Of a DNA stretch of 57,200 nucleotides, positions 5,500 through 55,513 are shown one piece after another. Every line of letters starts with the position of its first letter. Position 1 is the first letter of the stretch. The stretch lies in IMG/VR virus record IMGVR_UViG_3300046804_002082, positions 1-57,200 of that record; one strand, 5' to 3'. The translations under genes were made by a program, and so were the position numbers. A model generated the notes under the pieces. The model saw only the letters and a list, made by a program, of their open reading frames with translations, was not told the DNA's origin and did not search any database. This DNA comes from a virus (Duplodnaviria > Caudoviricetes).

Positions 5500-5809
5500 A
5501 AGAATCTATTGTAACAAAGATATGGTTGCACCACTAACGGCTGCATTCAAAGCTCTTATATCTACAGGATGTGTTACAGAACTTAAAACTTGGGATGGGT
5601 GTTTTAATATTAGAAAAAAACGTGGTTTAGCATCTATGAGTCTCCACTCTTGGGCGATTGCTATTGATGTTAACGCCTTTGAAAATGGATTGAATCAAAC
5701 GCCTAAGTTATCTAAACTTTTTGTGTCTTGCTTTACAAATAATGGATTTGACTGGGGTGGTACTTGGACAAGAAAAGACGGTATGCATTTTCAATTATCA
5801 AAGATATGA
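5390..5809 (+). CDS. Endolysin, peptidase M15 family (L-Ala-D-Glu/D-Ala-D-Ala type)
   Basis: R...SLHSWAIAIDVN and WGG.W...DGMHFQ zinc-ligand motifs. Confidence 0.9.
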   Translation: MVTSQQALKKYGQPSPSNPNLVLWDVPAELEIGVIPKRIYCNKDMVAPLTAAFKALISTGCVTELKTWDGCFNIRKKRGLASMSLHSWAIAIDVNAFENGLNQTPKLSKLFVSCFTNNGFDWGGTWTRKDGMHFQLSKI

Positions 5810-28924: not shown

Positions 28925-29620
28925 TTAGAAAGGTAGGTCACTTGTATCAGGTGCTTCTTCAAACTTAGGTTGTGCAACCTCTTCTGCGTGAACTAATTCA
29001 GGCGCATCAACTTTATTGTCACGACTTTTCATATAGGAAACTAATTCAGCGTAAGCAGTTTCCGCCTTTGCATTTACATCATCAGCAATAGCTTTGCCTA
29101 GTGTAAACACAGGTTGCGTGTACTTTGTAGCGCCTTTCTTCTTGTCTTCTACTGACAGAATCTCTACGCTATTAGATATAAACTGCTTGCGATTCTTTTC
29201 AACAAAGTCATACCAAGCTGAGAACGATGAGCCTGATAGTTTCAAGCAAACTAACTCTCCGTTTAATAATGCGTAAACAGACATTGCAAACTTAGCACCT
29301 GCGGTAGCCAATGTAGGCTTAATGTCTCCATAGATACCCTTAGCAATTAATAATCCCTTAGAGGTCTTAACCGTAAGTTCTTGTGTCTTTAAGTTAATAG
29401 TAGCTAACTCATTAGAATAGATACCTGATTTAGTTGGCTCGTGGTATCCACTAATTGTAGCCATTTCTTTTAATACAACAAAGTTCATAGGCATCTTGAT
29501 GTACTCATCCTTAGATGTTTCCTTGTTGTAATGTTTGAACGTGCGTTCTGCTGAATCCCATTGTAAATATTTAGCAACTGGCGACTTAGCACTTGATGAA
29601 AATTCGTCTGCTCTTGACAT
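28925..29620 (-). CDS. Putative ssDNA-binding protein
   Basis: Beta-rich core with acidic tail ending DLPF, as in SSB-type proteins. Strong AACCAAACCAAAC leader. Confidence 0.6.
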   Translation of the reverse strand: MSRADEFSSSAKSPVAKYLQWDSAERTFKHYNKETSKDEYIKMPMNFVVLKEMATISGYHEPTKSGIYSNELATINLKTQELTVKTSKGLLIAKGIYGDIKPTLATAGAKFAMSVYALLNGELVCLKLSGSSFSAWYDFVEKNRKQFISNSVEILSVEDKKKGATKYTQPVFTLGKAIADDVNAKAETAYAELVSYMKSRDNKVDAPELVHAEEVAQPKFEEAPDTSDLPF

Positions 29621-31187: not shown

Positions 31188-31447
31188 TAGAAAAAATCAG
31201 TATAAATTAATATAGGAGCATTCTCTACGTAAGGTATTGAGCGGGCGGTATTGTATTCGTAATTATCAATAGCCTCCTCTTCGGTCATACCTTGCTTAAT
31301 AAAGCATTCAACAATATCTCCAATAGAATATACAAGTCTAGGATTATCTGTGTCAGCATAAACGCCAATGATTGCATCATCTAAATCGTCTAGTTTAACA
31401 AAGTTATTGTCGGGAAATTGTTCGAGTATCTGTTCTAGTTTTGTCAT
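31187..31447 (-). CDS. Conserved phage hypothetical protein
   Basis: D.LDDAIIGV...LVYS...EEAI...EYN...P motif. Confidence 0.7.
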   Translation of the reverse strand: MTKLEQILEQFPDNNFVKLDDLDDAIIGVYADTDNPRLVYSIGDIVECFIKQGMTEEEAIDNYEYNTARSIPYVENAPILIYTDFF

Positions 31448-31595
31448 AGTCTATAAAATAAATGCATCGTTCTTCTCCGTCAGAAGGAGTGAACTCAACA
31501 TACACTTGTGAAAATTCGCTTGGGATTACAAGGAAACGATGACACCGATTAGATGACGGGCAATCCTTGTTTTGGCACATTGCGATATCGGGCAT
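31404..31595 (-). CDS. Small Cys-rich protein
   Basis: MPDIAMC...CP....C.RF...C.YF. AACCAAACAA leader. Confidence 0.65.
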   Translation of the reverse strand: MPDIAMCQNKDCPSSNRCHRFLVIPSEFSQVYVEFTPSDGEERCIYFIDYDKTRTDTRTISRQ

Positions 31596-35632: not shown

Positions 35633-36328
35633 TTAGTAATTATCAGGTATTTGAATCGTAGTACGTGGCGCTTGTGGGTCGCTAGGTAAATGTGTAGGCG
35701 CTGAATATTTAGGAGCGAATAAACCTGCCCAATTATTAGCAATGGATGTGTCAATGATTTGTTCTAGTTGTGCATCTGAATAGCTAGACCAAGTCTTAAT
35801 CAAAGTCTCACGACCCATTGGTTTATATGTTTGGTTCTTTTCTTTCTTATACTTAAACCATTTTTCAAAAATCAAATCACGTGGACTTAACTCCTTTTCT
35901 TCTTTTACTTTAATTTCCTTTACTTTACTTTCTTTTTCTTTACTTTGTTCAACGGTCGTTGGACTCTCGCTTAGCTGTCGTTTAGCTGCTGACTTTAATC
36001 CAGCCTCTCTGCGTTGTTCTTTCATTCTAAAATATGGTTCTAGATAAACTAACATCTTAGGAGAAAAGAACTTCTCTTCTGCATCAAACTCAAACAATTC
36101 GTAGCCACAAATAGTAGCTTTAACCTTTGCCTCTGACACACCAAACTCTTCTGCAAGTAGGTCAATATCTTCAAGCGGATACATTAAATCTTGTTGCTCC
36201 CTTAATGTTTCTAGGAGCATAAAATAAATACCATACCCCTCTACTCCCAATTCCTTTCTTAGCCTACGAATCTTTCGGTCGTGGCGTGCATTACAAAAAT
36301 GCGGAAAATAATAAGCGTCCTTTTTCAT
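35633..36328 (-). CDS. Phage replication initiator (DUF4373/Lin1244-like N-terminal domain)
   Basis: YFPH..NAR.D.KI..LR...G.EGYGIYF.LLE.L, a Lys/Glu linker and C-terminal SIANNWAGLF. Directly upstream of dnaB. Confidence 0.8.
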   Translation of the reverse strand: MKKDAYYFPHFCNARHDRKIRRLRKELGVEGYGIYFMLLETLREQQDLMYPLEDIDLLAEEFGVSEAKVKATICGYELFEFDAEEKFFSPKMLVYLEPYFRMKEQRREAGLKSAAKRQLSESPTTVEQSKEKESKVKEIKVKEEKELSPRDLIFEKWFKYKKEKNQTYKPMGRETLIKTWSSYSDAQLEQIIDTSIANNWAGLFAPKYSAPTHLPSDPQAPRTTIQIPDNY

Positions 36329-36519
36329 ACTCTTGCTATCTCTTTGTCTAGTGATGAAATAATATCTGATAATCTGTCAACCTCATTCAAAATGATATCG
36401 AATGCGGGAATGTCGGGATTGTAATGTTTAAGCACTCTTTCGTAATCTGAAAGTTCTATTTCAGTGTGTACTTTTTTAACCCGCAAAATTGCTAGATAAG
36501 CTTTGTCTTCTAATGTCAT
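36325..36519 (-). CDS. Hypothetical protein
   Basis: ORF with an AACCAAACAA leader after a promoter. Confidence 0.6.
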   Translation of the reverse strand: MTLEDKAYLAILRVKKVHTEIELSDYERVLKHYNPDIPAFDIILNEVDRLSDIISSLDKEIARV

Positions 36520-36899: not shown

Positions 36900-37147
36900 A
36901 ATTCTTTTTCTTTTAAGTTAAAATTGTTTTTAAATCTTACGTTTTTAATACCAAGTCTGTCGTAGAAAATAGTATCTATCTCTTCGGAAAATATTTCATC
37001 TTCTGACACTTGGTTGGTTTGTACTCGTTGTAAAAAATTGTACTTATCGTACACTGGTTTTTCGACTTTCTTTGGATTAAATATTATCCAAGTTGCTAGA
37101 CCGCTTGCGCTTGTTAAGCTTATCAAAATGATTCTTTTTAATTTCAT
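36896..37147 (-). CDS. Hypothetical protein with N-terminal signal/TM segment
   Basis: MKLKRIILISLTSASGLATWIIF. Confidence 0.5.
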   Translation of the reverse strand: MKLKRIILISLTSASGLATWIIFNPKKVEKPVYDKYNFLQRVQTNQVSEDEIFSEEIDTIFYDRLGIKNVRFKNNFNLKEKEL

Positions 37148-37325
37148 CCGCAATGTCGTTTTCTAGATTCGCCATCCCTATATAATGAGATGTTAAAATA
37201 AATATTAGAACAAGGATTATGACTGCTAGGAAACAATCCATTTGTGCCTCAAAAGATTTGGTCGTATATATCTTCACCATAAATAATAGCGTAGATAATC
37301 CCGATGTGTATTGTACTAGCTTCAT
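37077..37325 (-). CDS. Membrane protein
   Basis: Hydrophobic FLAVIILVLIFILT segment. Confidence 0.5.
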   Translation of the reverse strand: MKLVQYTSGLSTLLFMVKIYTTKSFEAQMDCFLAVIILVLIFILTSHYIGMANLENDIADEIKKNHFDKLNKRKRSSNLDNI

Positions 37326-37570
37326 AATAGTTCTATTGTTTTTTTGATTTGATTAATGATTTTTTCGCAAAGCACCTCGTCATTAGGCTCTGTACAATCT
37401 ATTGTTAAGTCTGTTAATTGACTACGCAAATGATTTAGATTAATGATTGGCGTGTAGTATTTCTCTTGGTAGCATTGCCGACCTGCTCTATCGAACATTA
37501 CGATTCGTGTCCATAATTTGCCCGACGACACACCTAGTGTATCCCCGCTTGAAAAGTTATATAATAACAT
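37322..37570 (-). CDS. Hypothetical protein
   Basis: ORF with an AACCAACCAA leader. Confidence 0.55.
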   Translation of the reverse strand: MLLYNFSSGDTLGVSSGKLWTRIVMFDRAGRQCYQEKYYTPIINLNHLRSQLTDLTIDCTEPNDEVLCEKIINQIKKTIELL

Positions 37571-37580
37571 ATTGGTTGGT

Positions 37581-37679
37581 TTAATAAACGATTAAAAGAA
37601 AATATGCAATTGCAACTGCAATAACCATAAGGAGGGCTTCTAGACCCTCCCCGTATGTAGGTTTATTTTTAGAACTCAT
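37581..37679 (-). CDS. 32-aa membrane peptide
   Basis: Hand-translated MSSKNKPTYGEGLEALLMVIAVAIAYFLLIVY. Confidence 0.45.
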   Translation of the reverse strand: MSSKNKPTYGEGLEALLMVIAVAIAYFLLIVY

Positions 37680-37932
37680 TTTTATGCGTCAATTTAAAGG
37701 TTGTTGGATAAGGAGATTGTATAGTATAATCATTGTCGTCGTACACTCCTACGAATAATTCGTCTTCGTATGTAAGATGCAACACAAACCGCTTGCCTCC
37801 CATTTCAAATGACTGCCAAGCATCTCTTTCAAAATCCCAATCTAATACAATATCACAATCCACTTTGTTTACCCTTGCCCATACTAATATCTTCTGCGAA
37901 AAAGGATTGATTACTACATTAAATTTAGTCAT
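37669..37932 (-). CDS. Early hypothetical protein
   Basis: ORF track entry. Confidence 0.6.
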   Translation of the reverse strand: MTKFNVVINPFSQKILVWARVNKVDCDIVLDWDFERDAWQSFEMGGKRFVLHLTYEDELFVGVYDDNDYTIQSPYPTTFKLTHKNEF

Positions 37933-38314
37933 CTGATAATTTGATTTTAAGGGCTGATAATACGTCGTCTAATGATTCACTAGGCTCGTCTGATTCTGAT
38001 TCATCCTCATCGCTTAAAAGCGCCATAAGCAATAGTTTAGACACAAGTTCTTCCATAGATTTTGGATTACGCTCTCGTCTAGCCGAAGCATCAACTCCGT
38101 CACGTTGACTATCTCGTATCTCTCTCCAATAATCTGCACCTTCGGGCGTCTTGGCGAAAAGAAAACTGCTGGATACAAACGTATCAAAGTCGTCAAATTC
38201 CTCTTTCAAGAACTCTTTAAAGTCGTCATTCTCTAATCTGCAATTAACAAAGTTGCTGATGAATTGTGATTGCTCAACCTCGTTAAGCATATCAAAATAT
38301 ATTTGTCCCGTCAT
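37925..38314 (-). CDS. Early acidic protein with F.F..TPEG..YW motif
   Basis: ORF track entry. Motif shared with 41299-41841. Confidence 0.65.
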   Translation of the reverse strand: MTGQIYFDMLNEVEQSQFISNFVNCRLENDDFKEFLKEEFDDFDTFVSSSFLFAKTPEGADYWREIRDSQRDGVDASARRERNPKSMEELVSKLLLMALLSDEDESESDEPSESLDDVLSALKIKLSDD

Positions 38315-38315
38315 A

Positions 38316-38543
38316 TTATTTATTAGTTCTTAATTGTTCGATTTGGTTTAAAAGTTTTTGTGAGTCAGCATTAGCCTTCTCTAATAGATTTTTATAAGCC
38401 TCGCTTAAACAATACAATTCAGATATCAACTCGTCTCTCAATTCCCACTCCTCCATTTCTGCATAGCATTCCATTTGCTCGTAGTCGATTGGGGATAAAG
38501 TACAATCCTTGATTGCATTTAAAATTTTTACTCGTGTACTCAT
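38316..38543 (-). CDS. Early hypothetical protein
   Basis: ATG 7 nt after a class B hairpin. Confidence 0.7.
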   Translation of the reverse strand: MSTRVKILNAIKDCTLSPIDYEQMECYAEMEEWELRDELISELYCLSEAYKNLLEKANADSQKLLNQIEQLRTNK

Positions 38544-38583
38544 TGTTTGAACGATTGCCTATACATCGTGAGGTTCTAGGTTA

Positions 38584-38829
38584 TTAAATAGAATGTGATG
38601 CAAAAGCTAAGTGAGCCATATCTTCGTAGTCATATTTCTTGGGATAATGAATCCGTTGCAAGTTATATGGGGTAGCGTCAAGACCATACTCGCAAGTGTA
38701 ACCGACTGCTCTTAATTCGTCAATCAATTCATTGCACCGCTCGTAAGAATATACATCGTCGGCATACCGCTCAATGATTTCAGTCACGTTTGCGGGCAAT
38801 AGTTCGGGGTATTCAAATAAGTCTTTCAT
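38584..38829 (-). CDS. Early hypothetical protein
   Basis: MKDLFEYPELLP...GYTCEYGLDA.PYNL motif. Confidence 0.7.
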   Translation of the reverse strand: MKDLFEYPELLPANVTEIIERYADDVYSYERCNELIDELRAVGYTCEYGLDATPYNLQRIHYPKKYDYEDMAHLAFASHSI

Positions 38830-38978
38830 TGTAATTGCATTAAAAGGATTTCGATATTATTAATAAGGTTTTCTTCTTCGGAAAAATCTTCCGCTACATA
38901 CTTTCTATCTTCTAAAAGAGTTCTCAACTCTTCTAGGTTCTCGCGAATTACATCGACGATTGCATCTTGTTTAGGCAT
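38826..38978 (-). CDS. 50-aa early protein
   Basis: Hand-translated MPKQDAIVDVIRENLEEL...MQLQ*, overlap-coupled on both sides. Confidence 0.55.
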   Translation of the reverse strand: MPKQDAIVDVIRENLEELRTLLEDRKYVAEDFSEEENLINNIEILLMQLQ

Positions 38979-39495
38979 CTTGTTGTTCTTTAATTAGTGC
39001 TTTTAGGAATGAGGAAACACTGCACGTAAAATGAGTCGATTCAATTAATGATTCGATTGAATCGTACGTAAATGAAGAATGCAGACCCATCTCATATTTA
39101 ATATTATGTTTGCATTCATAATTATATTCACCTACTCTCTTATTTGAATAATCTATAAATCCGTGCATCTTAATCATCTCTTCGCCTCTTATTCTATAAG
39201 ACAATGAATGACCATAATATCGTCCCGTCTCTTGCCACACGGGTTCTAATTCAAAACCTAACTCGTCGAAATAATCAGATAGCTTTTGCAAGTTACTTTC
39301 TATTTCTAGGCGTAACATTTTTACCCTAGCTTTTGCAACTTTATTCTGCTCATCACAAAAAGATTTGTCGGATTGCAACTCTTCTAGAATAGGTACTAGT
39401 GGGTTGCTTGATGATACCTTCGTAGTATTCATCTGCTTAAACTCTTCGATTAAAGAGTCAACAATTTTAGATTGGTTTGGGGTTAAATTTTTCAT
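38971..39495 (-). CDS. Early hypothetical protein
   Basis: ATG 12 nt after a class B hairpin. Confidence 0.7.
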   Translation of the reverse strand: MKNLTPNQSKIVDSLIEEFKQMNTTKVSSSNPLVPILEELQSDKSFCDEQNKVAKARVKMLRLEIESNLQKLSDYFDELGFELEPVWQETGRYYGHSLSYRIRGEEMIKMHGFIDYSNKRVGEYNYECKHNIKYEMGLHSSFTYDSIESLIESTHFTCSVSSFLKALIKEQQDA

Positions 39496-39538
39496 TTGGT
39501 TTGGTTAACGATTGCCTATACATCGTGAGGTTATTGGG

Positions 39539-39754
39539 TTAAACTTCTTCGCTATTTGTTAGAAACATAATTGATGTAAGCGTGGTATTATCATCTTCAT
39601 CGTATAGGTCTTCTTCTACCTCATACACAATCTCTTCATCTGAATCCCTATCGTATCTATAATAGATATGCACATTGCTTAAATCAAATTCCTTTTGAGT
39701 TTCCAGTAGGAATTCTAATAACTTTTTTGCAGTCAAAGGTTTTTTGTTTTTCAT
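39539..39754 (-). CDS. Early acidic protein
   Basis: Start reassigned to MKNKK, 7 nt after the hairpin. Confidence 0.7.
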   Translation of the reverse strand: MKNKKPLTAKKLLEFLLETQKEFDLSNVHIYYRYDRDSDEEIVYEVEEDLYDEDDNTTLTSIMFLTNSEEV

Positions 39755-39794
39755 AATACTGACGATTGACCTATACATCGTGAGGTTAAAGTGA

Positions 39795-39992
39795 TTAAAT
39801 AGTAAATTGCATAAAGTAGTTTATCATACAATCGTAAAGGCTCTCATATCCGTCATTAGAAGGCGACGCCAAGAAATCCTCATACAATGTAATTATCTCG
39901 CCGAAAGCTAAATCATATTCTAGTTCGACATCAATACGCTCATAGGCATAAGCCAACTGCGTGAACAAAAAGAAATCATAATCGTATTTCAT
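39795..39992 (-). CDS. Early acidic protein
   Basis: Start reassigned to MKYDY, 7 nt after the hairpin. Confidence 0.7.
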   Translation of the reverse strand: MKYDYDFFLFTQLAYAYERIDVELEYDLAFGEIITLYEDFLASPSNDGYESLYDCMINYFMQFTI

Positions 39993-40031
39993 AATACTGA
40001 CGATTGTCCTATACATCGTGAGGTTAAAGGT

Positions 40032-40181
40032 TTAATTAGTTAAATCGTAATAGCTGTCAGCATAAAAATTAGCTACGTTTATTAGCTTATCTACTAACTG
40101 CGGAACATCTAGTTCTTCTACTTTAATTGCATCGTCATCGTCTAAAAGATTTTTCAATGCTTCAATAAGTTGCTCTCTCAT
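40032..40181 (-). CDS. Early small protein
   Basis: Start reassigned to MREQL, 10 nt after the hairpin. Confidence 0.65.
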   Translation of the reverse strand: MREQLIEALKNLLDDDDAIKVEELDVPQLVDKLINVANFYADSYYDLTN

Positions 40182-40229
40182 TGTTTTATTAGCGATTGTC
40201 CTATACATCGTGAGGTTTTTAGTGATACC

Positions 40230-40237
40230 CAAATATA
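40230..40237 (-). promoter_or_regulatory. Bacteroidota sigma-A -7 element
   Basis: TATATTTG on the - strand at the boundary between class A and class B repeats. Confidence 0.65.
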
Positions 40238-40249
40238 GGGCGGTAAAAA

Positions 40250-40537
40250 TTATTCTGCTGAAATAGTAGACGAATCCGCTGATTGTGTAGACGAAATATC
40301 TTGGCTTGCTGAATTGTTGCTAGTGATATTATTTCGTCGTGCATAAGCCTTTGCCCAACCTAGTTGCGCTATTGTTAATTGCTCGTTAAACGTAGCGTAC
40401 TTTGCCATTTTGATAATCTTATTGTGTTCGGTATCGGCTTGGTACACATAGTTCTTTTGAGCGCATTCATAGACCGCTTTCATTAGGGCTTCGTTCTCTT
40501 TATAAATACGTGTTGATTCTTTATTAAATGTAGGCAT
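40250..40537 (-). CDS. Early hypothetical protein
   Basis: ATG 8 nt after a class A hairpin. Confidence 0.7.
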   Translation of the reverse strand: MPTFNKESTRIYKENEALMKAVYECAQKNYVYQADTEHNKIIKMAKYATFNEQLTIAQLGWAKAYARRNNITSNNSASQDISSTQSADSSTISAE

Positions 40538-40577
40538 ATTGTTAGGCGGTTTCCTTTACACCGCAAGGTTAAGGTTA

Positions 40578-40781
40578 TTAGTCGTTGTTAATCTGATTTT
40601 GTAATTTTTCTATCCAATGATTGGGTAGTTCTACGCAACTGATTACTATCTCATTTGCATAGCAATCAGCAATAGCCTCATCTTTACTGCCAAATATAAT
40701 AATGTCTCCCATTCCGTCTTGCAATGGATTGTCGTTTGCTTTATCATAAACAACAAAGTCGTATTCAGATAATTTTTTCAT
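40578..40781 (-). CDS. Early hypothetical protein
   Basis: ATG 8 nt after the hairpin. Confidence 0.7.
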   Translation of the reverse strand: MKKLSEYDFVVYDKANDNPLQDGMGDIIIFGSKDEAIADCYANEIVISCVELPNHWIEKLQNQINND

Positions 40782-40821
40782 AATCTTATGCGGTTGCCTC
40801 TACACCGCAAGGTTAAAATGA

Positions 40822-41247
40822 TTAGTAATTGTAAAGGTCTTCCCACCCGTCTACTGCTTTCGGTACGCTAGGCATCTCTCTTCTGTCCTCGTCGTAGTTG
40901 ATTATTAACTGCACTACCTCTTGGGTATTTGTTAGTCCCAATTTGTAATACTTATGAAATTCGTCAGCATCCATATTAGCAAAGTCAGAATGAGCGAATG
41001 AATGCAAATGATAGTAGTTCCACGTGCCGTCACAATCTCCGTCACAACCCGTATGCAAGAAGCCGTAAGTTGTTGACCCGTCTCTTATTATCTTGACAAA
41101 GTAATGAATACCTTCGCCACCCGTAATAATCGTATCAGTGAACTGAATGAGTTCCCCCCTTAATGATACGGGAACAAACAAATCTCTTTGATAATCGTGA
41201 ATATTCCAATTAACAAATTCTCCTAATCTCATTGCAAGATTTTTCAT
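40822..41247 (-). CDS. Early hypothetical protein
   Basis: Start reassigned to MKNLA, 10 nt after the hairpin. Confidence 0.7.
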   Translation of the reverse strand: MKNLAMRLGEFVNWNIHDYQRDLFVPVSLRGELIQFTDTIITGGEGIHYFVKIIRDGSTTYGFLHTGCDGDCDGTWNYYHLHSFAHSDFANMDADEFHKYYKLGLTNTQEVVQLIINYDEDRREMPSVPKAVDGWEDLYNY

Positions 41248-41298
41248 AATAGTAATAGCGGTTGACCTATCCACCGCAAGGCTAAAATGATTAGTGTT

Positions 41299-41841
41299 TT
41301 ATTTTCTACTAGCAATTGTTCGCCAATATGAGTGACCTTTCTTTGTGTTCTCCCAACTAAACGCTCCCGCAACAAACGGGTAAAGACTATCCTCTTTATT
41401 GCGCTCAATATAGTCGTTTGTATAGCCAACCCTATCCGCATTTAATTCGTCAACGAACTCAACCCACTCGTCATAGCTTAACAATTCTAGCACATCCTTT
41501 TGCAAGCAAGCTACCTCAATAGGGTATTTGGCACGCTCTATTTGTACTATATCGTTGTCTAATGAGCCGACCTCATTTAAGAAAGTTGCCTCTATTTTGA
41601 AGCCCTCAAACGTACCCTTAATATCAAGGTATTTGTCAGTCTCGCAACCGCCGTCACGACTTGTAAGGGTTAACGTATCGCTCATTAATAGCTTAGTAAA
41701 CATATCAATTCCGTTACCCTTTTTTAGGTAGAAAAACAAGTCAAGTTCTCCGCTAGACTTGACACTCAAATTGATTACGCTAGCCTCGTTTGGCTTCATC
41801 AATTCCACAAACTTTGTAAGGTTTTTTGTTGCTTGCAACAT
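41299..41841 (-). CDS. Early protein with C-terminal AF.W..T..G..YW motif
   Basis: Start reassigned to MLQAT, 11 nt after the hairpin. Confidence 0.7.
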   Translation of the reverse strand: MLQATKNLTKFVELMKPNEASVINLSVKSSGELDLFFYLKKGNGIDMFTKLLMSDTLTLTSRDGGCETDKYLDIKGTFEGFKIEATFLNEVGSLDNDIVQIERAKYPIEVACLQKDVLELLSYDEWVEFVDELNADRVGYTNDYIERNKEDSLYPFVAGAFSWENTKKGHSYWRTIASRK

Positions 41842-41883
41842 AAGATTAATATGCGGTTGACCTATACACCGCAAGGTTCTAGA

Positions 41884-42177
41884 TTAAAAATGAAAATCAA
41901 AATCAACTTCTTTGCCCTCTACTATATCTTCCTCTTTCCATACGTTTACCTTAAAGTCAACGCCCTTGTCCACTAGCCAAATCATAAGGCTTTTCTCTTC
42001 CATAGTCAACCTTTCTATTGACATAGTTTGTTCGGTAGAAAAATCCCTATTATTTGTGTACTCATAAAATCCAGTGTAGATTGTTTCACATTTCTCTTGA
42101 ATCCAATCTGCTTTAATCTTAAAGGTTTTCTCTCGGTACTCTCCTTTAAAAACGTAAGTGTATGATGTAATAATCAT
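41884..42177 (-). CDS. Early hypothetical protein
   Basis: Start reassigned to MIITS, 10 nt after a class C hairpin. Confidence 0.7.
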   Translation of the reverse strand: MIITSYTYVFKGEYREKTFKIKADWIQEKCETIYTGFYEYTNNRDFSTEQTMSIERLTMEEKSLMIWLVDKGVDFKVNVWKEEDIVEGKEVDFDFHF

Positions 42178-42187
42178 AAGGGTAAAA

Positions 42188-42212
42188 TTCGGTTTAGCGA
42201 CCACCGAAAAGC
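42188..42212 (-). repeat. Class C start-associated hairpin, copy 1
   Basis: + strand TTCGGT-TTAGCGACC-ACCGAA-AAGC, nearly identical to 45038-45063. Confidence 0.85.
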
Positions 42213-42236
42213 GTAGGTTTATATAATAATTAAACT

Positions 42237-42491
42237 TTAATCTGCTAGCGCCCAAAGTTCATAGACGTCGTCGTAGGTTAATCCGTACATCTCCGCAAGG
42301 CGTTCAAACAATCGCTCTCGCACTAAGCTATCCGTGACCTCTATATAGTCATAGACCTCTTTCTTTAAGCATAGCGTCCCGTAAAGACCTAGAAACGTAG
42401 CCGTCTCATTTAACTCCGCACCTAACTCGTCGGTCGGGAATGTCTTTGTGTAATACTCTTTGATATTATCCGTCATCAAAAATGTTAACAT
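42237..42491 (-). CDS. Early hypothetical protein
   Basis: PTDELG...DS.VRER.F..L motif. ATG 10 nt after the hairpin. Confidence 0.75.
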   Translation of the reverse strand: MLTFLMTDNIKEYYTKTFPTDELGAELNETATFLGLYGTLCLKKEVYDYIEVTDSLVRERLFERLAEMYGLTYDDVYELWALAD

Positions 42492-42533
42492 AGTTTTAGT
42501 GGCGGTTGCCTATACACCGCAAGGTTAAAGTGA

Positions 42534-42746
42534 TTAATATAATGTTATACTTTTAAGGTCTTTCTCGTTGATTATCGTGGTCACGATTGTGCATTTATGA
42601 CCATAAATCTTTTTGCGCTCTACCATAGCCTTTATAAAGTCTAGGTTTGCCGAATAGGTAGGCTTCCACCCTTCGATTCCGTTCCACGTATCATCACGTA
42701 GGTCTAGTTGAAAACCACGTTGGTTTACGATATGATATACTTTCAT
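42534..42746 (-). CDS. Early hypothetical protein
   Basis: ATG 10 nt after the hairpin. Confidence 0.7.
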   Translation of the reverse strand: MKVYHIVNQRGFQLDLRDDTWNGIEGWKPTYSANLDFIKAMVERKKIYGHKCTIVTTIINEKDLKSITLY

Positions 42747-42787
42747 AATACTAGTGGCGGTTGCCTATACACCGCAAGGTTAAAAGG

Positions 42788-43051
42788 TTAATTTAAAATT
42801 AATTTTACGTGATATGTATCTACGTCGCCGTATTCATCTAGGACATATTTCTGCCCCTTTACTAATAGCTTTTCGTCTATCGGTTTATTTTGCATTGATT
42901 CTAGCATATCATTTTGTGTTATACTAAACTCACGAAAATTCAATAAATTAGAATAAGCCATAGCTATAAAGTCCCCTCGCTCATTAAGATACCAATCCAA
43001 GAATTTTTCGCGGTCAATGAGCAATGTGTCTGTTAATTCATAAGTTCTCAT
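42788..43051 (-). CDS. Early hypothetical protein
   Basis: Start reassigned to MRTYE, 7 nt after the hairpin. Confidence 0.7.
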   Translation of the reverse strand: MRTYELTDTLLIDREKFLDWYLNERGDFIAMAYSNLLNFREFSITQNDMLESMQNKPIDEKLLVKGQKYVLDEYGDVDTYHVKLILN

Positions 43052-43106
43052 AATAATAGCGGTTGACCTACACACCGCAAGGTTTTAAGATTGTTGCTAG
43101 TGAAAA

Positions 43107-44069
43107 TTATTTGGCGGTCTCTAATATTAAAGCTACCGCCTCTTGTGACTTTTTGCTTGACTGCATAATCAAGTTCTTGTCGTCGTTGATTGCCTTAATC
43201 CACCCGTTAATATAGGCTTGACTATTTTTAAAGTCGTCAACCTTGCAATCAATTCCCGTGATAGCTTCTAGATAAAGCGCACCCAACTCCGCTACTAATT
43301 CCTCCTTTGAGTAATTCTCGCTACCGAAATTTGCCGTCGTGTCTAGTCGGTTAAGGCGTGACTTGTGTCCCGTGCTATGGATAGCCTCGTGAAAGAATAC
43401 CTTGTAATAATCCCCGCTTGACTGCCACTGCTTGTCCGTCTTTTCGGGCATTTGAATATAGTCCCCGCTAGGGCTATAAAACGCTTGTCCTTGCTTGCTA
43501 TGTTTAAGCGTGACTACACTAGACCACCCTTTTAATATAGCCTCCGCGCTAGCTACCGCCTCCAATTCGGTTGCCTCTTCTTCTACTAGATTGGGCGTGT
43601 CGTGAGGTAGGTTCGTTTGACTGATTGACCATACTTTCCACTGCTTCAAGTAGAAAGATTTGCGGGCTATTTTCTTGTCCGCTTCGGGTACTTTTGCTAG
43701 GGTAGGATAGTAGGTAGTTTTCCCGTCCTTGTCCACTGCATAGCTGATTTGCCACATAAAGATATCCGTCCCCTTTTCCCCCTTATTAATTAAGCCCTCA
43801 CATTTTTGGATATGGGCAAACGTGTACCACTTGTTGACCCAATTGTTTTCTAAGGCTATTGCCGAAAGAATAAATTGATTCCAACCTTTGTACGGGCGTC
43901 CATAAGCGGACAACGCTTGAAAGCTACCCGTCACGCCGTCCTTGAAAGGCTTAAACCACTGCAATCCCTTGTCTTTGAGACCCGCTATAACCTTGTCGTT
44001 AATTGAGTCAATGATTTGCGCTTGTGTTAATTTTGGTGCGCTTGCAAATGTTTTTTTAGCTACTGCCAT
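43107..44069 (-). CDS. ardC: ArdC-family antirestriction protein (ssDNA-binding domain plus zincin-like metallopeptidase domain)
   Basis: W.KPF, RPYKGWN, WYTF, KGEKG, AFYSP..D.I.MP, HEAIHSTGH..RLNR, YSKEELVAELGA, AYI.GW. Start MAVAK 11 nt after the hairpin. Confidence 0.92.
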   Translation of the reverse strand: MAVAKKTFASAPKLTQAQIIDSINDKVIAGLKDKGLQWFKPFKDGVTGSFQALSAYGRPYKGWNQFILSAIALENNWVNKWYTFAHIQKCEGLINKGEKGTDIFMWQISYAVDKDGKTTYYPTLAKVPEADKKIARKSFYLKQWKVWSISQTNLPHDTPNLVEEEATELEAVASAEAILKGWSSVVTLKHSKQGQAFYSPSGDYIQMPEKTDKQWQSSGDYYKVFFHEAIHSTGHKSRLNRLDTTANFGSENYSKEELVAELGALYLEAITGIDCKVDDFKNSQAYINGWIKAINDDKNLIMQSSKKSQEAVALILETAK

Positions 44070-44111
44070 AAGATTAATAAGCGGTTGACCTACCACCGCA
44101 AGGCTTAAAGA

Positions 44112-44405
44112 TTATTTGATTGTTTTTAATTCTACCGCGTTGGGCAACGTAGAAAGATATTCAACGTAGCCAACCTCATTTTCCGTAACGAAAGCCCAAT
44201 CGTCATTAATAAATGTTTCTAAGGCGCGACCCATAAAAAATGAAGGCTCGAAATCGTCAAGCGTGTAGGGTGATTTCGCTTCACCCGTCATAGATATATA
44301 ATAATTATTAAGCGCGTCAAGCATTTGCTCCTTGTTGTCAAAGCTAAAATGTAAAGGATGTCCGTCCCCTTTCATTCCTAAAATGTTAAAAATTGCGTAG
44401 TACAT
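44112..44405 (-). CDS. Early hypothetical protein
   Basis: ATG 7 nt after the hairpin. Confidence 0.7.
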   Translation of the reverse strand: MYYAIFNILGMKGDGHPLHFSFDNKEQMLDALNNYYISMTGEAKSPYTLDDFEPSFFMGRALETFINDDWAFVTENEVGYVEYLSTLPNAVELKTIK

Positions 44406-44443
44406 AACAAAGGCGGTTGACCAATTACCGCAAGGCTTTAAGA

Positions 44444-44521
44444 TTAAGATAATAAACTAGCAACGATAAGGGCTAGGGCAACCCGTGCCACTAGACCCAA
44501 CTGAAATTTTAAGTCCTCCAT
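44444..44521 (-). CDS. 25-aa hydrophobic peptide
   Basis: Hand-translated MEDLKFQLGLVARVALALIVASLLS*, fills the gap before the next hairpin. Confidence 0.5.
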   Translation of the reverse strand: MEDLKFQLGLVARVALALIVASLLS

Positions 44522-44522
44522 A

Positions 44523-44702
44523 TTACTTACCCTCCTCCACTGAAATACAACCACCTGCCGAAAAGATAGACCCAAACACTAAGAAAGCGAAGCGACCGCC
44601 TACGGGCGCATCTGCTACCCAAGCCAAGTCCCACGCCACAAAGGCGATAAGAAAGTAAAACACTACAAAAATCAAAGCGATAACTTTTACATAGATATTC
44701 AT
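44523..44702 (-). CDS. Early two-TM membrane protein
   Basis: Start MNIYV 8 nt after the hairpin. Two hydrophobic helices. Confidence 0.65.
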   Translation of the reverse strand: MNIYVKVIALIFVVFYFLIAFVAWDLAWVADAPVGGRFAFLVFGSIFSAGGCISVEEGK

Positions 44703-44741
44703 AATAATTCGCGGTTGACCTATCCACCGCAAGGCTAATGA

Positions 44742-45029
44742 TTATAATAATTCAGTTAATTTGTGCATATCAATTTCGCATTGAACGAATTCGTAAAGCG
44801 ACTGATAAGCTAGTTCGGTTATATTTGTGCAACCCCCGAAATCCGTTACTCCTAATGCCATAACAATAGCGAAGCAATCAGAATAATAGATACAAGCCGT
44901 GTCAATTTCTTGACTGATATAGTCTTGAATTTCGTCGTAATCAGTCATAAGATTAGTCTTTGACCCAATCAAGTCAATAATTTCTTTTTCTAGTGTTTCC
45001 ACAAAAAGAAAGGGATTAAATTTTTCCAT
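44742..45029 (-). CDS. First early gene, acidic protein
   Basis: Start MEKFN 8 nt after a class C hairpin. EID..CIYY.D...LAY..L motif. Confidence 0.7.
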   Translation of the reverse strand: MEKFNPFLFVETLEKEIIDLIGSKTNLMTDYDEIQDYISQEIDTACIYYSDCFAIVMALGVTDFGGCTNITELAYQSLYEFVQCEIDMHKLTELL

Positions 45030-45037
45030 AGGAAAAG

Positions 45038-45063
45038 TTCGGTTAAAGCGACAACCGAAAAGC
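45038..45063 (-). repeat. Class C start-associated hairpin, copy 2
   Basis: + strand TTCGGTT-AAAGCGAC-AACCGAA-AAGC. Confidence 0.85.
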
Positions 45064-45077
45064 AAAGTTGAAAAAAT

Positions 45078-45093
45078 TGTTTCACGTGGAACA
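45078..45093. promoter_or_regulatory. parS: parS (ParB/Spo0J-binding) site
   Basis: TGTTTCACGTGGAACA, a 15/16 match to the bacterial chromosomal parS palindrome TGTTTCACGTGAAACA. Confidence 0.85.
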
Positions 45094-45103
45094 TACCACG
45101 TTG

Positions 45104-45171
45104 CGACTAGATAGGGAAACGAACCCTACACTCACGGGACTAAGCCTAAGTGAGGCGACCAACGTCTAGCC
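45104..45171 (-). ncRNA. tRNA-like RNA lacking a canonical D-arm
   Basis: GGCTAGA/TCTAGTC 7-bp acceptor-like stem, TAGGG-TTCGTTT-CCCTA T-arm and CTCAC/GTGAG middle arm. Confidence 0.6.
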
Positions 45172-45546
45172 GTTAAGCGTAAACTATCACTAGCGGTAGC
45201 GGTTCAAAAGGGCTAAACCCAATTTATGTACATCCGTTTCATTGCACCCGTTGACCCTACGGGGGTGGGAATTTGATAACTCTGTTTTTTCAGAAAAGCC
45301 GATAAGTCAAAGAACTATTTAAGCATACTTTCGTCCGTTCGGTCGGGGCTATTGACAAACCGCGTTTAGCGCGGTACAAGTACTTATGTTTAACGTCTAG
45401 CCCTCCCCTAGTGAGCCTATCCTTTGCACCACTATTGCAGTGGCTTCGCATCTCCCCCTAATGAGCCAATTCGGGCGTTCGGGGTATATAGCACGCGCCT
45501 CGTTCGGCGGGCTTGTCTCGTGAGCCGTTGCTCCCGTTTGACATTA

Positions 45547-45554
45547 CAAACCTA
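45547..45554 (-). promoter_or_regulatory. Probable major early promoter (-7 element)
   Basis: TAGGTTTG on the - strand, with TTGACA about 17 nt upstream, at the edge of the GC-rich leader. Confidence 0.6.
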
Positions 45555-45677
45555 CACAATTTTATATACCCTTGTCAAGTTTTCTTTGAAAAATGCAATG
45601 AATTAGTTCAAATTAGTTGAAAGTTCTTTAAATAATACAATTAGCATAGTAATAACCCTTTCGCCCTATACTGAATT

Positions 45678-45765
45678 CGCGCTACACGCACGATACGCGA
45701 CACGCACGCTACGCGCAACACGCGACACGTACACGCATCACACGCGCGACGCACACGCGCTACAC
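45678..45765. repeat. ACGC/ACAC-rich low-complexity degenerate repeat tract
   Basis: cgcgctacacgcacgatacgcgacacgcacgctacgcgcaacacgcgacacg..., mostly alternating purine-pyrimidine, in the divergent intergenic region. Confidence 0.8.
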
Positions 45766-46061
45766 TATGAGCAATTTTAGACCCCCGATTTTGCGTCTAA
45801 TGAACTTTCTTTACTAGGGCGGATAGATTGGACATTTTAGGGGGTAAAGTCGCTTAAATCAAAGATATGACCCCTTAAATCGAATGCTTTGTTTTGTACA
45901 ATTTTTGTCTAGGAAAAATCCTATATGAATTGTAGGGTCGTTGGGGGGTTGATTTTTGGGGGTTATTGTTGGGCGGGTAGACCCTCTTGCCGACCTATAC
46001 GCCTAGCAATTTATTTTTCTATCCTGACTTGTGGGGGTTGTTGTTTCTTGACGGGGTCAAT

Positions 46062-46150
46062 CAGGATAACTCAGGACAGAATTGTTAGGAGGGTATTGTA
46101 TAGGGGTTATTCGTCGGTAATATATTGCCGAACAGGATAACTCAGGACAG
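46062..46150 (+). repeat. 18-bp direct repeat pair
   Basis: CAGGATAACTCAGGACAG at 46062-46079 and 46133-46150. Confidence 0.85.
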
Positions 46151-46301
46151 GGAATTTTGGAATTTTGATTATGAAAAGAGACCCCACCCCGTTCGGAATT
46201 TGCGGTTTGTCATTGGTTTGGCGACCCGTCCCGTTTTATATATAACCTTCTGAAAACACCTACGCGCTACATAAAAAATTGCAACATTGGCGACTAATCA
46301 T

Positions 46302-46309
46302 TACCTTTG
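46302..46309 (+). promoter_or_regulatory. Bacteroidota sigma-A -7 element
   Basis: TACCTTTG before the GroES-like gene. Confidence 0.65.
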
Positions 46310-46335
46310 GACACATAAACCAAACGATATATAAA

Positions 46336-46977
46336 ATGTTACAATACAACATCAGGCAAGCACCTGCAAATACGGTCATTGTAGAGGTTGGTAAAACGCT
46401 AGAAGATACAGTTACTTTTGGCAGTATGACGCTACACATAGACCCTGAATTTAACCCTACACATCACGCAAGAATCTTTGGACGAGTAGTCGCTGTACCA
46501 GACGGTAGAACGTGGGACGAAGAGAACAATACAATTAACGACGAGGTTGAGGTAGGCGACCTTATATACTTCCATTACTTAGTAACTAGCAATGAAGCAA
46601 ACTGTATCTACGGCAACTATTATAAAGTACCTTATTATTGGATTTTTTGTAGCGTTAGGAACGGTAATATATTACCTGTTGGAGGCTGGACTTTATGCGA
46701 GCCGACGGTTGAGCAGGAATATAATACAGTTGAAGTTGAAGGTAAGAAAATGGAAGCGACTTTTAGTGCATCAGGATTAGTGACATCTGTGTTTAAAACA
46801 CCATCTGTTGACGTAGCAAAGTTATCATATATTGGTAAGCCAGTAGGTGACAATTATGAGTGCGAAGCAAAGGTAGGTGCAACAGTAGTTTTAGCTAAAA
46901 ACTCCAACTTTCTTAACAAAATTGAAGGTAAAGACTACTATACTGTTAAGCAACAATACATCTTAGGAGTTAAATAA
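46336..46977 (+). CDS. Tandem GroES-like co-chaperonin
   Basis: Two GroES-like halves: G.VVAVP...VEVGD.IYF and P.GG..L.EP...SASGLV...VG..V...IEGKDYYTVK...IL. Confidence 0.7.
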   Translation: MLQYNIRQAPANTVIVEVGKTLEDTVTFGSMTLHIDPEFNPTHHARIFGRVVAVPDGRTWDEENNTINDEVEVGDLIYFHYLVTSNEANCIYGNYYKVPYYWIFCSVRNGNILPVGGWTLCEPTVEQEYNTVEVEGKKMEATFSASGLVTSVFKTPSVDVAKLSYIGKPVGDNYECEAKVGATVVLAKNSNFLNKIEGKDYYTVKQQYILGVK

Positions 46978-46998
46978 AGCACTTTTTGTACGAAAATC

Positions 46999-47074
46999 CA
47001 ACGACCGTTCAACGACCGTTCAACGACCGTTCAACAAAGTAAAGAAAAGAAAAGTAAAGTAAAGTAAATAAAAG
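46999..47074 (+). repeat. 3 x 11-bp tandem repeat plus A-rich tract, candidate replication origin
   Basis: CAACGACCGTT x3, then CAACAAAGTAAAGAAAAGAAAAGTAAAGTAAAG. Homologous to 35909-35963 inside the initiator gene. Confidence 0.8.
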
Positions 47075-52169: not shown

Positions 52170-53243
52170 ATGGAAGAGAACGTAATAAACCTAGACGAAT
52201 TATTGCCTAGTGAAACACAACAAGAGTCAACAGTGCGGGACATTACCCCAGCTTCAGAACAAGCTCCTAGCGAAGATGTTAGCGGTGAAACTGAAGGAAC
52301 TGATGATTCTATTGAAGATGAGTTTCCAAAAGAGGAAACTCAATTAGATGAGGGTATTACAGAAGGTTCGGCAGAACAGGTAGAAGAAAAAGTTGATAGC
52401 ATCCCAGAGGTGGAAGCTGAAGCTGAGACTCCTACTGAAACTCCTGCTGAGCCATCTGAATATAAATTCAAGGACGATTTCATCAAGAAAGCGGTAGAGT
52501 ACTACGAGACGTATGGTACTTTGCAACCGTATCTGGAAGCGACTTCGGTTGATTATGACGCTGTCTCAGACTTAGATTTAGTTAAATCTCAGTTTGAAAA
52601 AGACAATGCAGATTTAAGCGAAAGAGCAAGAACCAGATTGTTTGAAAAAGAACTTGAGAAATATAATCTTGATTCGTATGATGAAGATGACGTTGAGGTA
52701 GGTAAAGCCTTGTTAATGCGAGATGCCAACAAGTTACGTACTAAACTAAAGGAGGAGCAGCAAAAGTTCATCCAAAACATCCAGCCTGCGGGACAAGAAC
52801 AAGTACAACAAGTATCTCCAGAGGAAATTGAAGCGCAACAAGCGGAAACGCGTAAAGCAATTCAATCTGGAGTAAGTAGTGTAATTAAAGACAACTTAAT
52901 TAAGTTGGAAGCTAATGGCGAAGGCATTAATTATCAAGTAGCCGATGCTAACAAAGTCGTTGATTACGCTATTGATTCAAGTAAATTTCTATCAACTTTC
53001 GCCAAAGACGGAAGTGTAGATTGGAACAAGTGGACACAAGTAGTTGCATTCGCAGAGAATCCAACTCAGTTTATAAGTGAACTAATTAAACACGGAAAAT
53101 CTTTGGGTCGTAAGGCGATGGAGGCAGAATTAAAAAATGTCACTCCACCTACGAACTCAAAAGAGGTTATTGAAAACAGCGACTTTACTAGTCCATTTGA
53201 TAACCCTGTTGACTTTTTAAAGGGAATGACTGTAAGAAAGTAA
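52170..53243 (+). CDS. Capsid scaffolding-like protein
   Basis: Very acidic, disordered N-terminus. Lies between portal and capsid genes. Confidence 0.7.
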   Translation: MEENVINLDELLPSETQQESTVRDITPASEQAPSEDVSGETEGTDDSIEDEFPKEETQLDEGITEGSAEQVEEKVDSIPEVEAEAETPTETPAEPSEYKFKDDFIKKAVEYYETYGTLQPYLEATSVDYDAVSDLDLVKSQFEKDNADLSERARTRLFEKELEKYNLDSYDEDDVEVGKALLMRDANKLRTKLKEEQQKFIQNIQPAGQEQVQQVSPEEIEAQQAETRKAIQSGVSSVIKDNLIKLEANGEGINYQVADANKVVDYAIDSSKFLSTFAKDGSVDWNKWTQVVAFAENPTQFISELIKHGKSLGRKAMEAELKNVTPPTNSKEVIENSDFTSPFDNPVDFLKGMTVRK

Positions 53244-54697: not shown

Positions 54698-55513
54698 ATG
54701 AAAGCATCTGAATACAATCAGTTGTCTCCAGAAATGGAGAGAAAGTTAGCCTTGAATGAAAGAGCTACTTATCGAGTTAATAATGTGCGTCCTGACCCAG
54801 ATAACTATGGGAAATTCTTGATGCCATCTGCATTGCAAATCCCTTCAACAGACGTTATTTACGACAAAGGCAAGAAAGACTTTGTTACAATTGCTGCTAT
54901 TGAGCGTGTTGACAATGACGGTAATCCAGTATTTTTGAACATTGTTTTTACAGCAGCTAATTTTGGATATTTATTCCTTGATGGCAAAAATCCTGTTCAT
55001 CAGAAAATTTACCAATTCTTAGAGTTATGCAATTACAATGAAAGCAATCCTAATAAAAACGGGGAGGCTGAAATTCATTTTCATCGCGTAGATACTAAGA
55101 AAGAGGCAATCCAAGAACGCTCTATGCGTAAGTTAATTGTTCGTGCAATGAACCTTGCTTTAGAGATGGACGACAAAAAAGCAAAAGAAGTTGCAATGGC
55201 ACTTGGTATTGATGCAGAATCAATCGACGAAATTCGCAATGAATTAGAAGACTACGCAGGCGAGAATCCTAGCGAGTTTTTAGAAGTTGCAGAACGCGCT
55301 ACCATTGAAGTTGAATCTTTGTTGAAAGAAGCAATTAAAAAGGGTATTATTGTAAACAATTCTAATGCACAAACATTTGAGTGGGCGGAAACTCATAAAG
55401 AGATTTACAAGTACAAGAAATCTCCTAATAAGAACTACGTCAAAGAACTAGCCGATTACCTAGAAGAAAACAATCCAGATGAGCTAAATGCCATCAAGAC
55501 CCGCTTGGGGTAA
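54698..55513 (+). CDS. Conserved protein following the capsid gene
   Basis: 271 aa with its own promoter and terminator. Position resembles the conserved post-capsid gene of crAss-like phages. Confidence 0.7.
   Translation: MKASEYNQLSPEMERKLALNERATYRVNNVRPDPDNYGKFLMPSALQIPSTDVIYDKGKKDFVTIAAIERVDNDGNPVFLNIVFTAANFGYLFLDGKNPVHQKIYQFLELCNYNESNPNKNGEAEIHFHRVDTKKEAIQERSMRKLIVRAMNLALEMDDKKAKEVAMALGIDAESIDEIRNELEDYAGENPSEFLEVAERATIEVESLLKEAIKKGIIVNNSNAQTFEWAETHKEIYKYKKSPNKNYVKELADYLEENNPDELNAIKTRLG

Follow-up and report, generated by a model that had tools for sequence, protein, structure and literature searches.

A recurring intergenic hairpin unit in the early region of a tailed phage and in other viruses and mobile elements

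Short stem-loops that recur between genes have been described in several settings. The closest to the repeat considered here are the PeSL elements of T4-type phages, which are short conserved intergenic stem-loop cassettes, drawn with G-T pairs, that stand between the stop codon of a small orphan open reading frame (ORF) and the next start codon, in the hyperplastic early region and at the borders of shuffled cassettes (PMC2839356). Here we describe a hairpin element present in 15 copies in a tailed-phage genome of the Caudoviricetes (IMG/VR record IMGVR_UViG_3300046804_002082, positions 1 to 57,200). This stretch, hereafter the window, is the entire contig of 57.2 kb. We interpret the repeats as a portable non-coding unit of the sense strand, residing most probably in the early polycistronic mRNA, that punctuates cistron boundaries and links gene cassettes, and we would put the probability of this interpretation at roughly 0.45.

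Like PeSL, the element is a conserved cassette flanking small orphan ORFs in a mosaic region. PeSL, however, are ~100 bp long and carry a strong sigma-70 promoter and a Shine-Dalgarno (SD) site (PMC2839356), whereas the element has a core of ~27 nt, lacks a recognisable host promoter and is marked by an invariant motif in flank and loop. An internal host promoter, as in PeSL, was rejected, since the arrangement TTTG...TAnnTTTG is present in none of the elements. Unlike PeSL, the element is also common to unrelated viruses, including a single-stranded-DNA microvirus. The REP/BIME palindromes and their RAYT transposases offer a second comparison, as they are short, intergenic and multicopy, with a tetranucleotide at the foot and strand-specific G.T pairs. 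The present element differs from them in that no RAYT or other transposase was found (75 ORFs compared with PHROGs), that its copies have one orientation relative to the genes and a fixed distance to the start codon, and that it sits on viruses and mobile elements instead of being dispersed over chromosomes. The promoters of the N4 virion RNA polymerase are 5–7-bp DNA hairpins before early genes, again in a podovirus-like phage with a giant virion protein; in N4 the loop measures 3 nt and the active strand is the template strand, whereas the element has a 9–10-nt loop and its wobble pairs favour the non-template strand. Finally, minimal H-type pseudoknots are similar on paper, with a 5' strand that pairs with a hairpin loop and short connecting loops L1 and L3. 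In the element, by comparison, one of the two stems has 3 bp without covariation, 2–5 unpaired bases lie between the stems, and no Rfam match, slippery site or ligand-related gene context was found. A literature search that covered phage and Bacteroidetes stem-loops, Microviridae intergenic hairpins, Cellulophaga transcriptomes and the element's own words returned no description of it. A preprint on the crAss-like phage phi14:2 reports no common motif upstream of early transcripts, so that it provides no parallel.

A covariance model built from the 15 copies scored them at 42–60 bits in a scan of the window, all on the minus strand between 38543 and 44748, and the next-best match with filters off reached only 13.5 bits. 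When the window was scanned with a degenerate version of the element, 13 sites matched, compared with 0.61 expected from shuffles. Every copy occupies the short gap separating two small early ORFs of the minus strand, most of which have no family match, and the array is confined to an early block of 6.2 kb. Read on the sense strand, an A/U-rich, G-poor run after the upstream stop codon leads into AACCU (replaced by GCCU in four window copies), one base, a 5-bp stem with its loop, and a spacer. Ten copies have the stem GCGGU/ACCGC (class B) and five have ACGAU/AUCGU (class A). The loop of 9–10 nt has the form G-NNN-AGG-N(1-2)-A, with G first, A last and AGG inside. A preliminary description of this region, made from the letters of the DNA, gave coordinates, counts and loop lengths that proved accurate: CCU stands 5' of the stem at a distance of 1 nt (U or C) in all 15 copies, AGG occurs in the loop of 14 with UGG as the single exception, and the gap from AGG to the 3' stem arm is 2–3 nt in all 15. 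The 5-bp stem is fully Watson-Crick in 14 (the copy at 40184–40229 has A.C at its base), and pairing of CCU with AGG can be extended by A-U in three copies and by G.U in four, or 7 of 15 in total. The UGG copy, at 44405–44450, likewise exists, but its UGG lies at 44421–44423 in plus-strand numbering and not at 44413, which is the beginning of the copy.

The reality of the stem was examined in relatives found by a route independent of the motif. With the terminase as a handle, 80 related loci were obtained and 48 of them were searched with the covariance model. Fourteen of these 48 contained the element, in 51 additional copies that are all oriented like the array of the window. Two-sided changes were seen in three of the five stem pairs (28 cells in total), 97% of the cells pair, and the observed covariation was reached by no shuffle. 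Additional stem versions include UCGGU/ACCGA and GUGGU/ACCAC and, in gut copies, GCAAC/GUUGC, GCAAU/AUUGC and GCUAU/AUAGC. RNAalifold, applied de novo to 65 copies with extended flanks, returned this hairpin alone, and outer helices or a larger fold were dropped on this basis. The hairpin is the minimum-energy fold in 15 of the 15 window copies. Over 145 distinct copies, the three internal stem pairs contain 18 G.U or U.G and no A.C or C.A; with internal G.U on the sense strand, the complementary strand would carry mismatches. All examined copies, moreover, point with the flanking genes. The earlier proposal that the element acts on the mRNA-sense strand is supported by these last two observations, and on the comparative evidence we regard the hairpin as real and as folding on that strand. 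The molecule is most probably RNA rather than sense-strand single-stranded DNA.

The position of the element relative to the start codon is equally constrained. Counted over 66 copies (window and relatives), the stem-to-ATG distance is 7–13 nt in 65, with a mode of 8, whereas ACCU follows the upstream stop codon at 6–9 nt in 35 and at anywhere from 2 to 37 nt overall. Any excess length of an intergenic gap is therefore found ahead of the element and not between the element and the start codon. The flank of the element is nearly free of G, and the bases after the stem are mixed A/U. Spacing is 7–10 nt in most of the gut Bacteroidales copies and 7 nt in the microvirus. Two further hairpins of the window, termed class C, have the same ATG distance as the elements.

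The element is not restricted to this phage and its relatives. A 16-letter seed matched 60 stretches in the viral collection, nearly all of them complete elements according to the model; many carriers have one copy, on contigs that show no relationship to this phage and range from 5 to 96 kb. The same seed matched 92 stretches in bacterial contigs taken at one genome per species, and about 18 of the 79 loci searched contain true elements, the rest being chance matches. Fifteen of the true loci belong to Bacteroidota (mostly gut or rumen Bacteroidales), and the other three are labelled Flexilinea, Saccharibacteria and Acutalibacteraceae. Nine annotated genome loci are mobile-element-like, with BT4734-like helicase-primases, NADAR, Rad52-like and PcfJ-like proteins and one Microviridae capsid gene. 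In the capybara gut microvirus MK496690, a copy of 51.7 bits lies between the major capsid gene (which ends at 2253) and the next gene (which starts at 2302). Both adjacent ORFs are co-oriented with the element in the 32 further loci checked. The proteins encoded downstream, 132 distinct ones, form 84 clusters including 57 singletons, which rules out the leader of a single gene family; a mimic of a CRISPR repeat was ruled out because the seed forms no arrays in the 92 genome loci. An earlier collection scan with a loose pattern returned mostly chance matches, with true elements in only 1 of 80 loci. Rfam 15 gave no match at E up to 1 for positions 37000–47000 on both strands, and blastn against the phage collection found no close DNA relatives of the region. 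Together, the covariance-model and seed searches describe a widespread family, not represented in Rfam 15, with members in relatives of this phage, unrelated phage contigs, gut Bacteroidales mobile elements and a gut microvirus.

The surroundings of the elements are mosaic. Relatives with 89–93% terminase identity share the early region with the window only in patches, in a different order. When homology blocks of at least 100 bp were delimited inside 38500–44800, 19 of their 40 ends fell within 20 nt of an element, against a uniform expectation of 15.7% (binomial p = 2e-6). The cassette between the elements at 42749–42795 and 43051–43098 recurs at 87% identity in locus L223, which has just one other stretch, 68% identical, in common with the compared region. 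The pattern resembles that of the PeSL cassettes of T4-type phages, for which recombination from one cassette to another was demonstrated experimentally (PMC2839356).

The genome is organised in blocks. A structural block on the plus strand (1–27036), which includes an ORF of 3358 aa at 15139–25215, is followed by a minus-strand block from 27037 to ~45100 that encodes a DnaB-like helicase, a replication initiator, an exonuclease and an ArdC-like anti-restriction protein, and the terminase and portal genes belong to a plus-strand block starting at 46279. The 38.5–45-kb stretch is most likely the promoter-proximal, early part of the leftward operon. An SD-like motif was found in none of the 40 window ORFs of at least 100 aa. 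Sites resembling TTTG ... TAnnTTTG, which we take to be the Bacteroidota promoter consensus, precede several blocks of the window, and the closest cultured phages (~33% terminase identity) infect the Flavobacteriia Flavobacterium, Cellulophaga, Tenacibaculum and Maribacter. Because of these three features, the host is most likely a member of the Bacteroidota.

In the interpretation that we favour, the unit would mark the cistron boundaries of mobile-element operons and insulate or stabilise the downstream translation start. By folding locally, it might leave the next gene with a short single-stranded leader for ribosomes that work without SD pairing, and it would probably shield an mRNA end or flank from nucleases. 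The invariant ACCU, G, AGG and A could be read by a conserved partner or could form a small CCU:AGG tertiary contact. The same unit may serve as a homology patch at which phages exchange gene cassettes, because the same roughly 30–45-nt sequence flanks many unrelated small genes. We infer both the effect on translation or stability and the existence of a partner. Should the unit indeed influence translation or mRNA survival, it would provide a compact and transferable expression signal for a phylum, the Bacteroidota, in which the choice of start codons without SD motifs is only partly understood and genetic tools are limited. As a marker, the element flags early, fast-evolving cassettes, anti-restriction genes among them, and its borders show sites of exchange; it also connects freshwater phages to gut microviruses and to further mobile elements.

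Several observations weigh against this interpretation. Single hairpins are weak, with −2.3 to −4.6 kcal/mol in class A and −6.8 to −10.2 kcal/mol in class B, and with z-scores between −0.3 and −2.1 they do not reach significance. A search for RNA sequencing runs covering 38400–45700 returned none. G.T pairs in a sense-strand hairpin would also suit a function in single-stranded DNA, and the microvirus packages exactly this strand. In loci with SD-like motifs in 40–80% of the ORFs, the element is found 15–48 nt from the ATG, upstream of the motif, and a role strictly tied to SD-less initiation is therefore not general. The true copies in bacteria occur in mobile-element-like contexts (the nine loci mentioned above), while a general translation enhancer might also precede host genes. 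Furthermore, mosaic joints are expected at gene borders anyway, and as the gene borders coincide with elements, the enrichment of breakpoints is no proof that the elements cause exchange.

The hairpin unit looks like one of several interchangeable leader modules. Window genes outside the array have A/C-rich (U)AACCAAACAA leaders 3–12 nt before the ATG, which are likely the ordinary translation-start context of these phages, and the element-less relatives L005, L006, L014 and L028 have repeated leaders such as AAACAATCAAAACAA; this distribution suggests that leader modules are swapped between clades. Examples of the AACCAAACAA leader stand upstream of the ORFs at 28925–29620, 31404–31595, 36325–36519, 52170–53243 and 54698–55513. 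The AAACAATCAAAACAA leader is repeated before early genes in L014, L036 and L006, all element-less, and in the distant relative L031 the word TAACCAAAC stands ~10 nt ahead of six ORFs. The array itself contains only one intergenic TAnnTTTG box, at 40230–40237 on the minus strand, ~10 nt upstream of the element at 40184–40229. This box may be an internal promoter, in which case a primary transcript would carry the hairpin at its 5' end. The arrangement of box plus element is kept in L002 and L003.

The preliminary description had proposed, tentatively, that the element can fold as a minimal H-type pseudoknot, with CCU:AGG (sometimes ACCU:AGGU) as stem S1 and the 5-bp stem as S2, and that it acts as RNA, for example as a nuclease block or a ligand. 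A crossing two-stem topology is possible on sequence in 14 of the 15 window copies and in 49 of the 51 copies from relatives, with a U.G in one more; in the relatives, both C-G pairs of S1 are present in 51 of 51 copies, and the third pair is U-A in 49, U.G in one and broken in one. The CCU lies exactly 1 nt from the stem in 138 of the 145 distinct copies; the segment from the stem to AGG, in contrast, is variable in both length and sequence, in keeping with a linker. L1 is 1 nt and L3 2–4 nt, with 2–5 nt separating S2 and AGG (the energies given above were computed for the plain hairpin only). Since class A hairpins are weak alone, additional stabilisation would be useful to them. The covariance model and one seed include CCU/AGG, and hence a second scan was carried out with a seed that leaves both motifs free. 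In the viral collection this seed gave 29 matches, 24 with ACCU and AGG and 5 with neither; one of these five was checked and is a chance match, inside a 639-aa ORF on the other strand. In the metagenomes, among the matches listed (93 distinct), 22 have CCU/AGG, three have CCU/GGG and 68 raw matches have neither. The two motifs thus occur together or not at all. Four of the six variants at the A position are G (one in L001 and three in listed metagenome copies), with which a U.G pair is still possible.

The comparative data nevertheless do not support the pseudoknot, even though the CCU:AGG pairing is possible. None of the three S1 pairs (none of four with the extension) changes on both sides, while S2 covaries in the same copies, and the model would have detected such variants. 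The lack of covariation in S1, which the preliminary description had itself pointed out, thus holds in 51 homologue copies. No alternative complementary pair replacing CCU/AGG was found in the free-seed scans of the viral collection or among the metagenome matches listed. Several changes are one-sided and uncompensated, namely UGG in the window copy at 44405–44450 and at L001:5004 and CCC at L269:563. The optional fourth pair forms in just seven of the window's 15 copies and, among the 26 relative copies with a base at that position, in 20; the A of ACCU is kept even where it is unable to pair, and both class C hairpins (42187–42209 and 45036–45062) manage without S1. A rough sum of nearest-neighbour and Dirks-Pierce values sets about −5 kcal/mol for S1 against a knot penalty of about +10 kcal/mol, so that the plain hairpin should be favoured over the knot unless the latter is otherwise assisted. 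Conserved pseudoknot stems of 3 bp do exist. In the copies compared here, CCU/AGG is conserved base by base and the stem as a structure. Recognition by a partner (protein or RNA) would account for such conservation of identity as well as a 3-bp helix with extra constraints would. A ligand encoded by the phage, one of the roles suggested earlier, is unlikely because the 6-kb microvirus carries the same element. We consider the pseudoknot an unlikely functional form, one that would be compatible with a sense-strand punctuation unit. The comparative data capable of supporting it have now been obtained, and the outcome is negative but useful.

Less probable still, in our estimate, is a strand-specific hairpin that works at the DNA level, either as a miniature element of the REP or PATE kind or as a site for an enzyme of single-stranded DNA (HUH nuclease, primase or recombinase), spread by mobility or recombination and with an orientation that follows replication. 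Such a hairpin would account for near-identical copies across unrelated viruses and mobile elements, for G.T pairs restricted to one strand, for the conserved tetranucleotide at the foot of the palindrome, a feature of REP elements, and for the occurrence of the element on the packaged strand of a single-stranded-DNA microvirus. It is difficult to reconcile with the uniform sense orientation of all copies, which form no inverted pairs in the window, and with the tight spacing of 7–13 nt to the start codon, as expected of an expression signal. Furthermore, no transposase or HUH-nuclease match was obtained when 75 ORFs were compared with PHROGs and 40 with Pfam, the 15 copies are limited to the 6.2-kb early block, unlike a priming signal, and the seed shows no clustered arrays in the 92 genome loci.

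An intrinsic terminator or attenuator that meters the early operon and acts after highly expressed genes has little chance of being the answer. The elements lie between genes, downstream of stop codons, U-rich runs come after several of the single copies, some stand behind capsid genes, and the stem-loops of the T4-type PeSL act as terminators (PMC2839356). The stem of 5 bp and the loop of 9–10 nt, however, are unlike those of a classical intrinsic terminator, which was rejected for its short stem, its large loop and the absence of a U-tract: the post-stem bases are mixed A/U in the 66 copies and are not U-rich in most of the SD-using loci. The invariant ACCU and AGG would also be left unexplained. 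About as improbable is a more specific idea of our own, namely that the unit is a portable ribosome-landing device for hosts that ignore SD sequences, in which the ACCU:AGG(U) helix mimics the helix of SD and anti-SD. Here, ACCU would represent the start of the anti-SD and the loop AGG(U) the end of the SD, and the pair would be stacked on the 5-bp hairpin. The helix would lie 7–13 nt upstream of the AUG, the normal place of the SD helix on the 30S platform, and Bacteroidota mobile elements, from microviruses to 60-kb phages, would trade the device together with gene cassettes. Least probable of all is a promoter for a phage-borne RNA polymerase, of the N4 hairpin type or the T7 type ending in ...TATA GG, since the position of the element before nearly every early gene, its conserved sequence ending in UAUAGG and a 3358-aa ORF of the virion block that recalls the N4 virion polymerase are outweighed by wobble pairs that favour the non-template strand, by the presence of host-type promoter-like sites, by a 6-kb microvirus that has the element and encodes no polymerase, and by the giant ORF itself, which has no RNA polymerase match in PHROGs, Pfam, NCBIfam or PDB sequences, lacks the motifs DxDxD, T/DxxGR and R...K......YG, and shares its C-terminal module with a family in which 8 of 25 scanned members have LPD38.

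Other identities were also rejected. A dif/Xer-like site does not suit arms of just 5 bp or a location between a capsid gene and the next gene; the att sites described for microviruses flank the provirus and do not occupy this gap (PMC3091885). Class B resembles the 3' end of E. coli 16S rRNA, but no such resemblance is seen in class A or the remaining stem variants, and the likeness is therefore incidental. The giant ORF was dismissed as a virion RNA polymerase on the absence of a polymerase match or catalytic motif and on its relatives with LPD38. The features of the array are listed in Table 1.

Table 1. Copies of the element, class C hairpins and a promoter-like site in the window (bits, covariance-model score)
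Feature	Position	Strand	Score or remark
Class B copy, GCGGU/ACCGC stem, GCCU flank, loop GGAUAGGUCA; ATG 8 nt past stem	44703–44748	−	54.0 bits
Class B copy with UGG for AGG	44405–44450	−	42.0 bits
Class B copy preceding ArdC-like gene (43107–44072)	44073–44119	−	47.4 bits
Class B copy	43051–43098	−	51.6 bits
Class B copy, short loop GUAUAGGCA	42749–42795	−	52.7 bits
Class B copy, short loop, top score	42494–42538	−	60.1 bits
Class B copy	41845–41891	−	55.8 bits
Class B copy, GCCU flank	41250–41295	−	57.5 bits
Class B copy, loop GUAGAGGCA	40782–40826	−	52.5 bits
Class B copy, loop GUAAAGGAA	40538–40582	−	46.9 bits
Class A copy (ACGAU/AUCGC, A.C at base), TAnnTTTG box just upstream	40184–40229	−	50.3 bits
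Class A copy (ACGAU/AUCGU)	39992–40040	−	55.4 bits
Class A copy	39754–39798	−	57.6 bits
Class A copy, then UAACCAAACCAA leader	39500–39545	−	46.7 bits
Class A copy, last of array	38543–38587	−	50.8 bits
Class C hairpin UUCGGU ... ACCGAA, loop GGUCGCUAA without AGG, same position before ATG	42187–42209	−	8.4 bits only
Class C hairpin before first ORF of block, without CCU flank and AGG	45036–45062	−	same distance from ATG as the elements
Promoter-like site, presumed Bacteroidota type (CTTG, 21 nt, TAGGTTTG)	45547–45582	−	reads into early block

The giant ORF (plus strand) gave no above-threshold PHROG, Pfam or NCBIfam family and no PDB match, the one weak sub-threshold hit being Pfam WXG100. 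At E up to 0.001, the final ~950 aa match 788 representatives of a large giant-protein family, and most of these matches fall at the C-terminus of proteins of 2000–3600 aa. Among the 25 family members scanned, eight have the LPD38 polyvalent-protein domain and one an ADP-ribosyltransferase of polyvalent proteins. The ORF is probably an injected polyvalent protein. Within the array, the ArdC-like anti-restriction protein (43107–44096, minus strand) combines an ArdC N-terminal domain with a metallopeptidase of polyvalent proteins; in locus L229, another element follows an ArdC-like gene.

Between the divergent blocks lies a G+C-richer non-coding region of 1.2 kb (45066–46280), which may be an origin or packaging region. 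The G+C-rich leader of 480 nt at 45066–45545 is not unusually structured (z = −0.74). The region contains a run of GCGTGT-like words at approximately 45690–45780, G-rich 28-nt repeats at 45940–46111, and two exact direct repeats of 18 nt at 46062–46079 and 46133–46150. Among the relatives, dense direct-repeat arrays are found in L027 (about 5530–5580 and 7470–7535) and L006 (about 9230–9290 and 110–170), composed of TTCACTATCAAA, in two separate runs of five units each, and of ATAGTATCA words; these arrays look like iterons or operator arrays. In L029, L030 and L035, whose terminase is ~47% identical, CCCCGAAC words directly precede the tRNA T-arm-like sequences GGTTCGATTCC, and in these loci a cluster of tRNA genes may precede the terminase.

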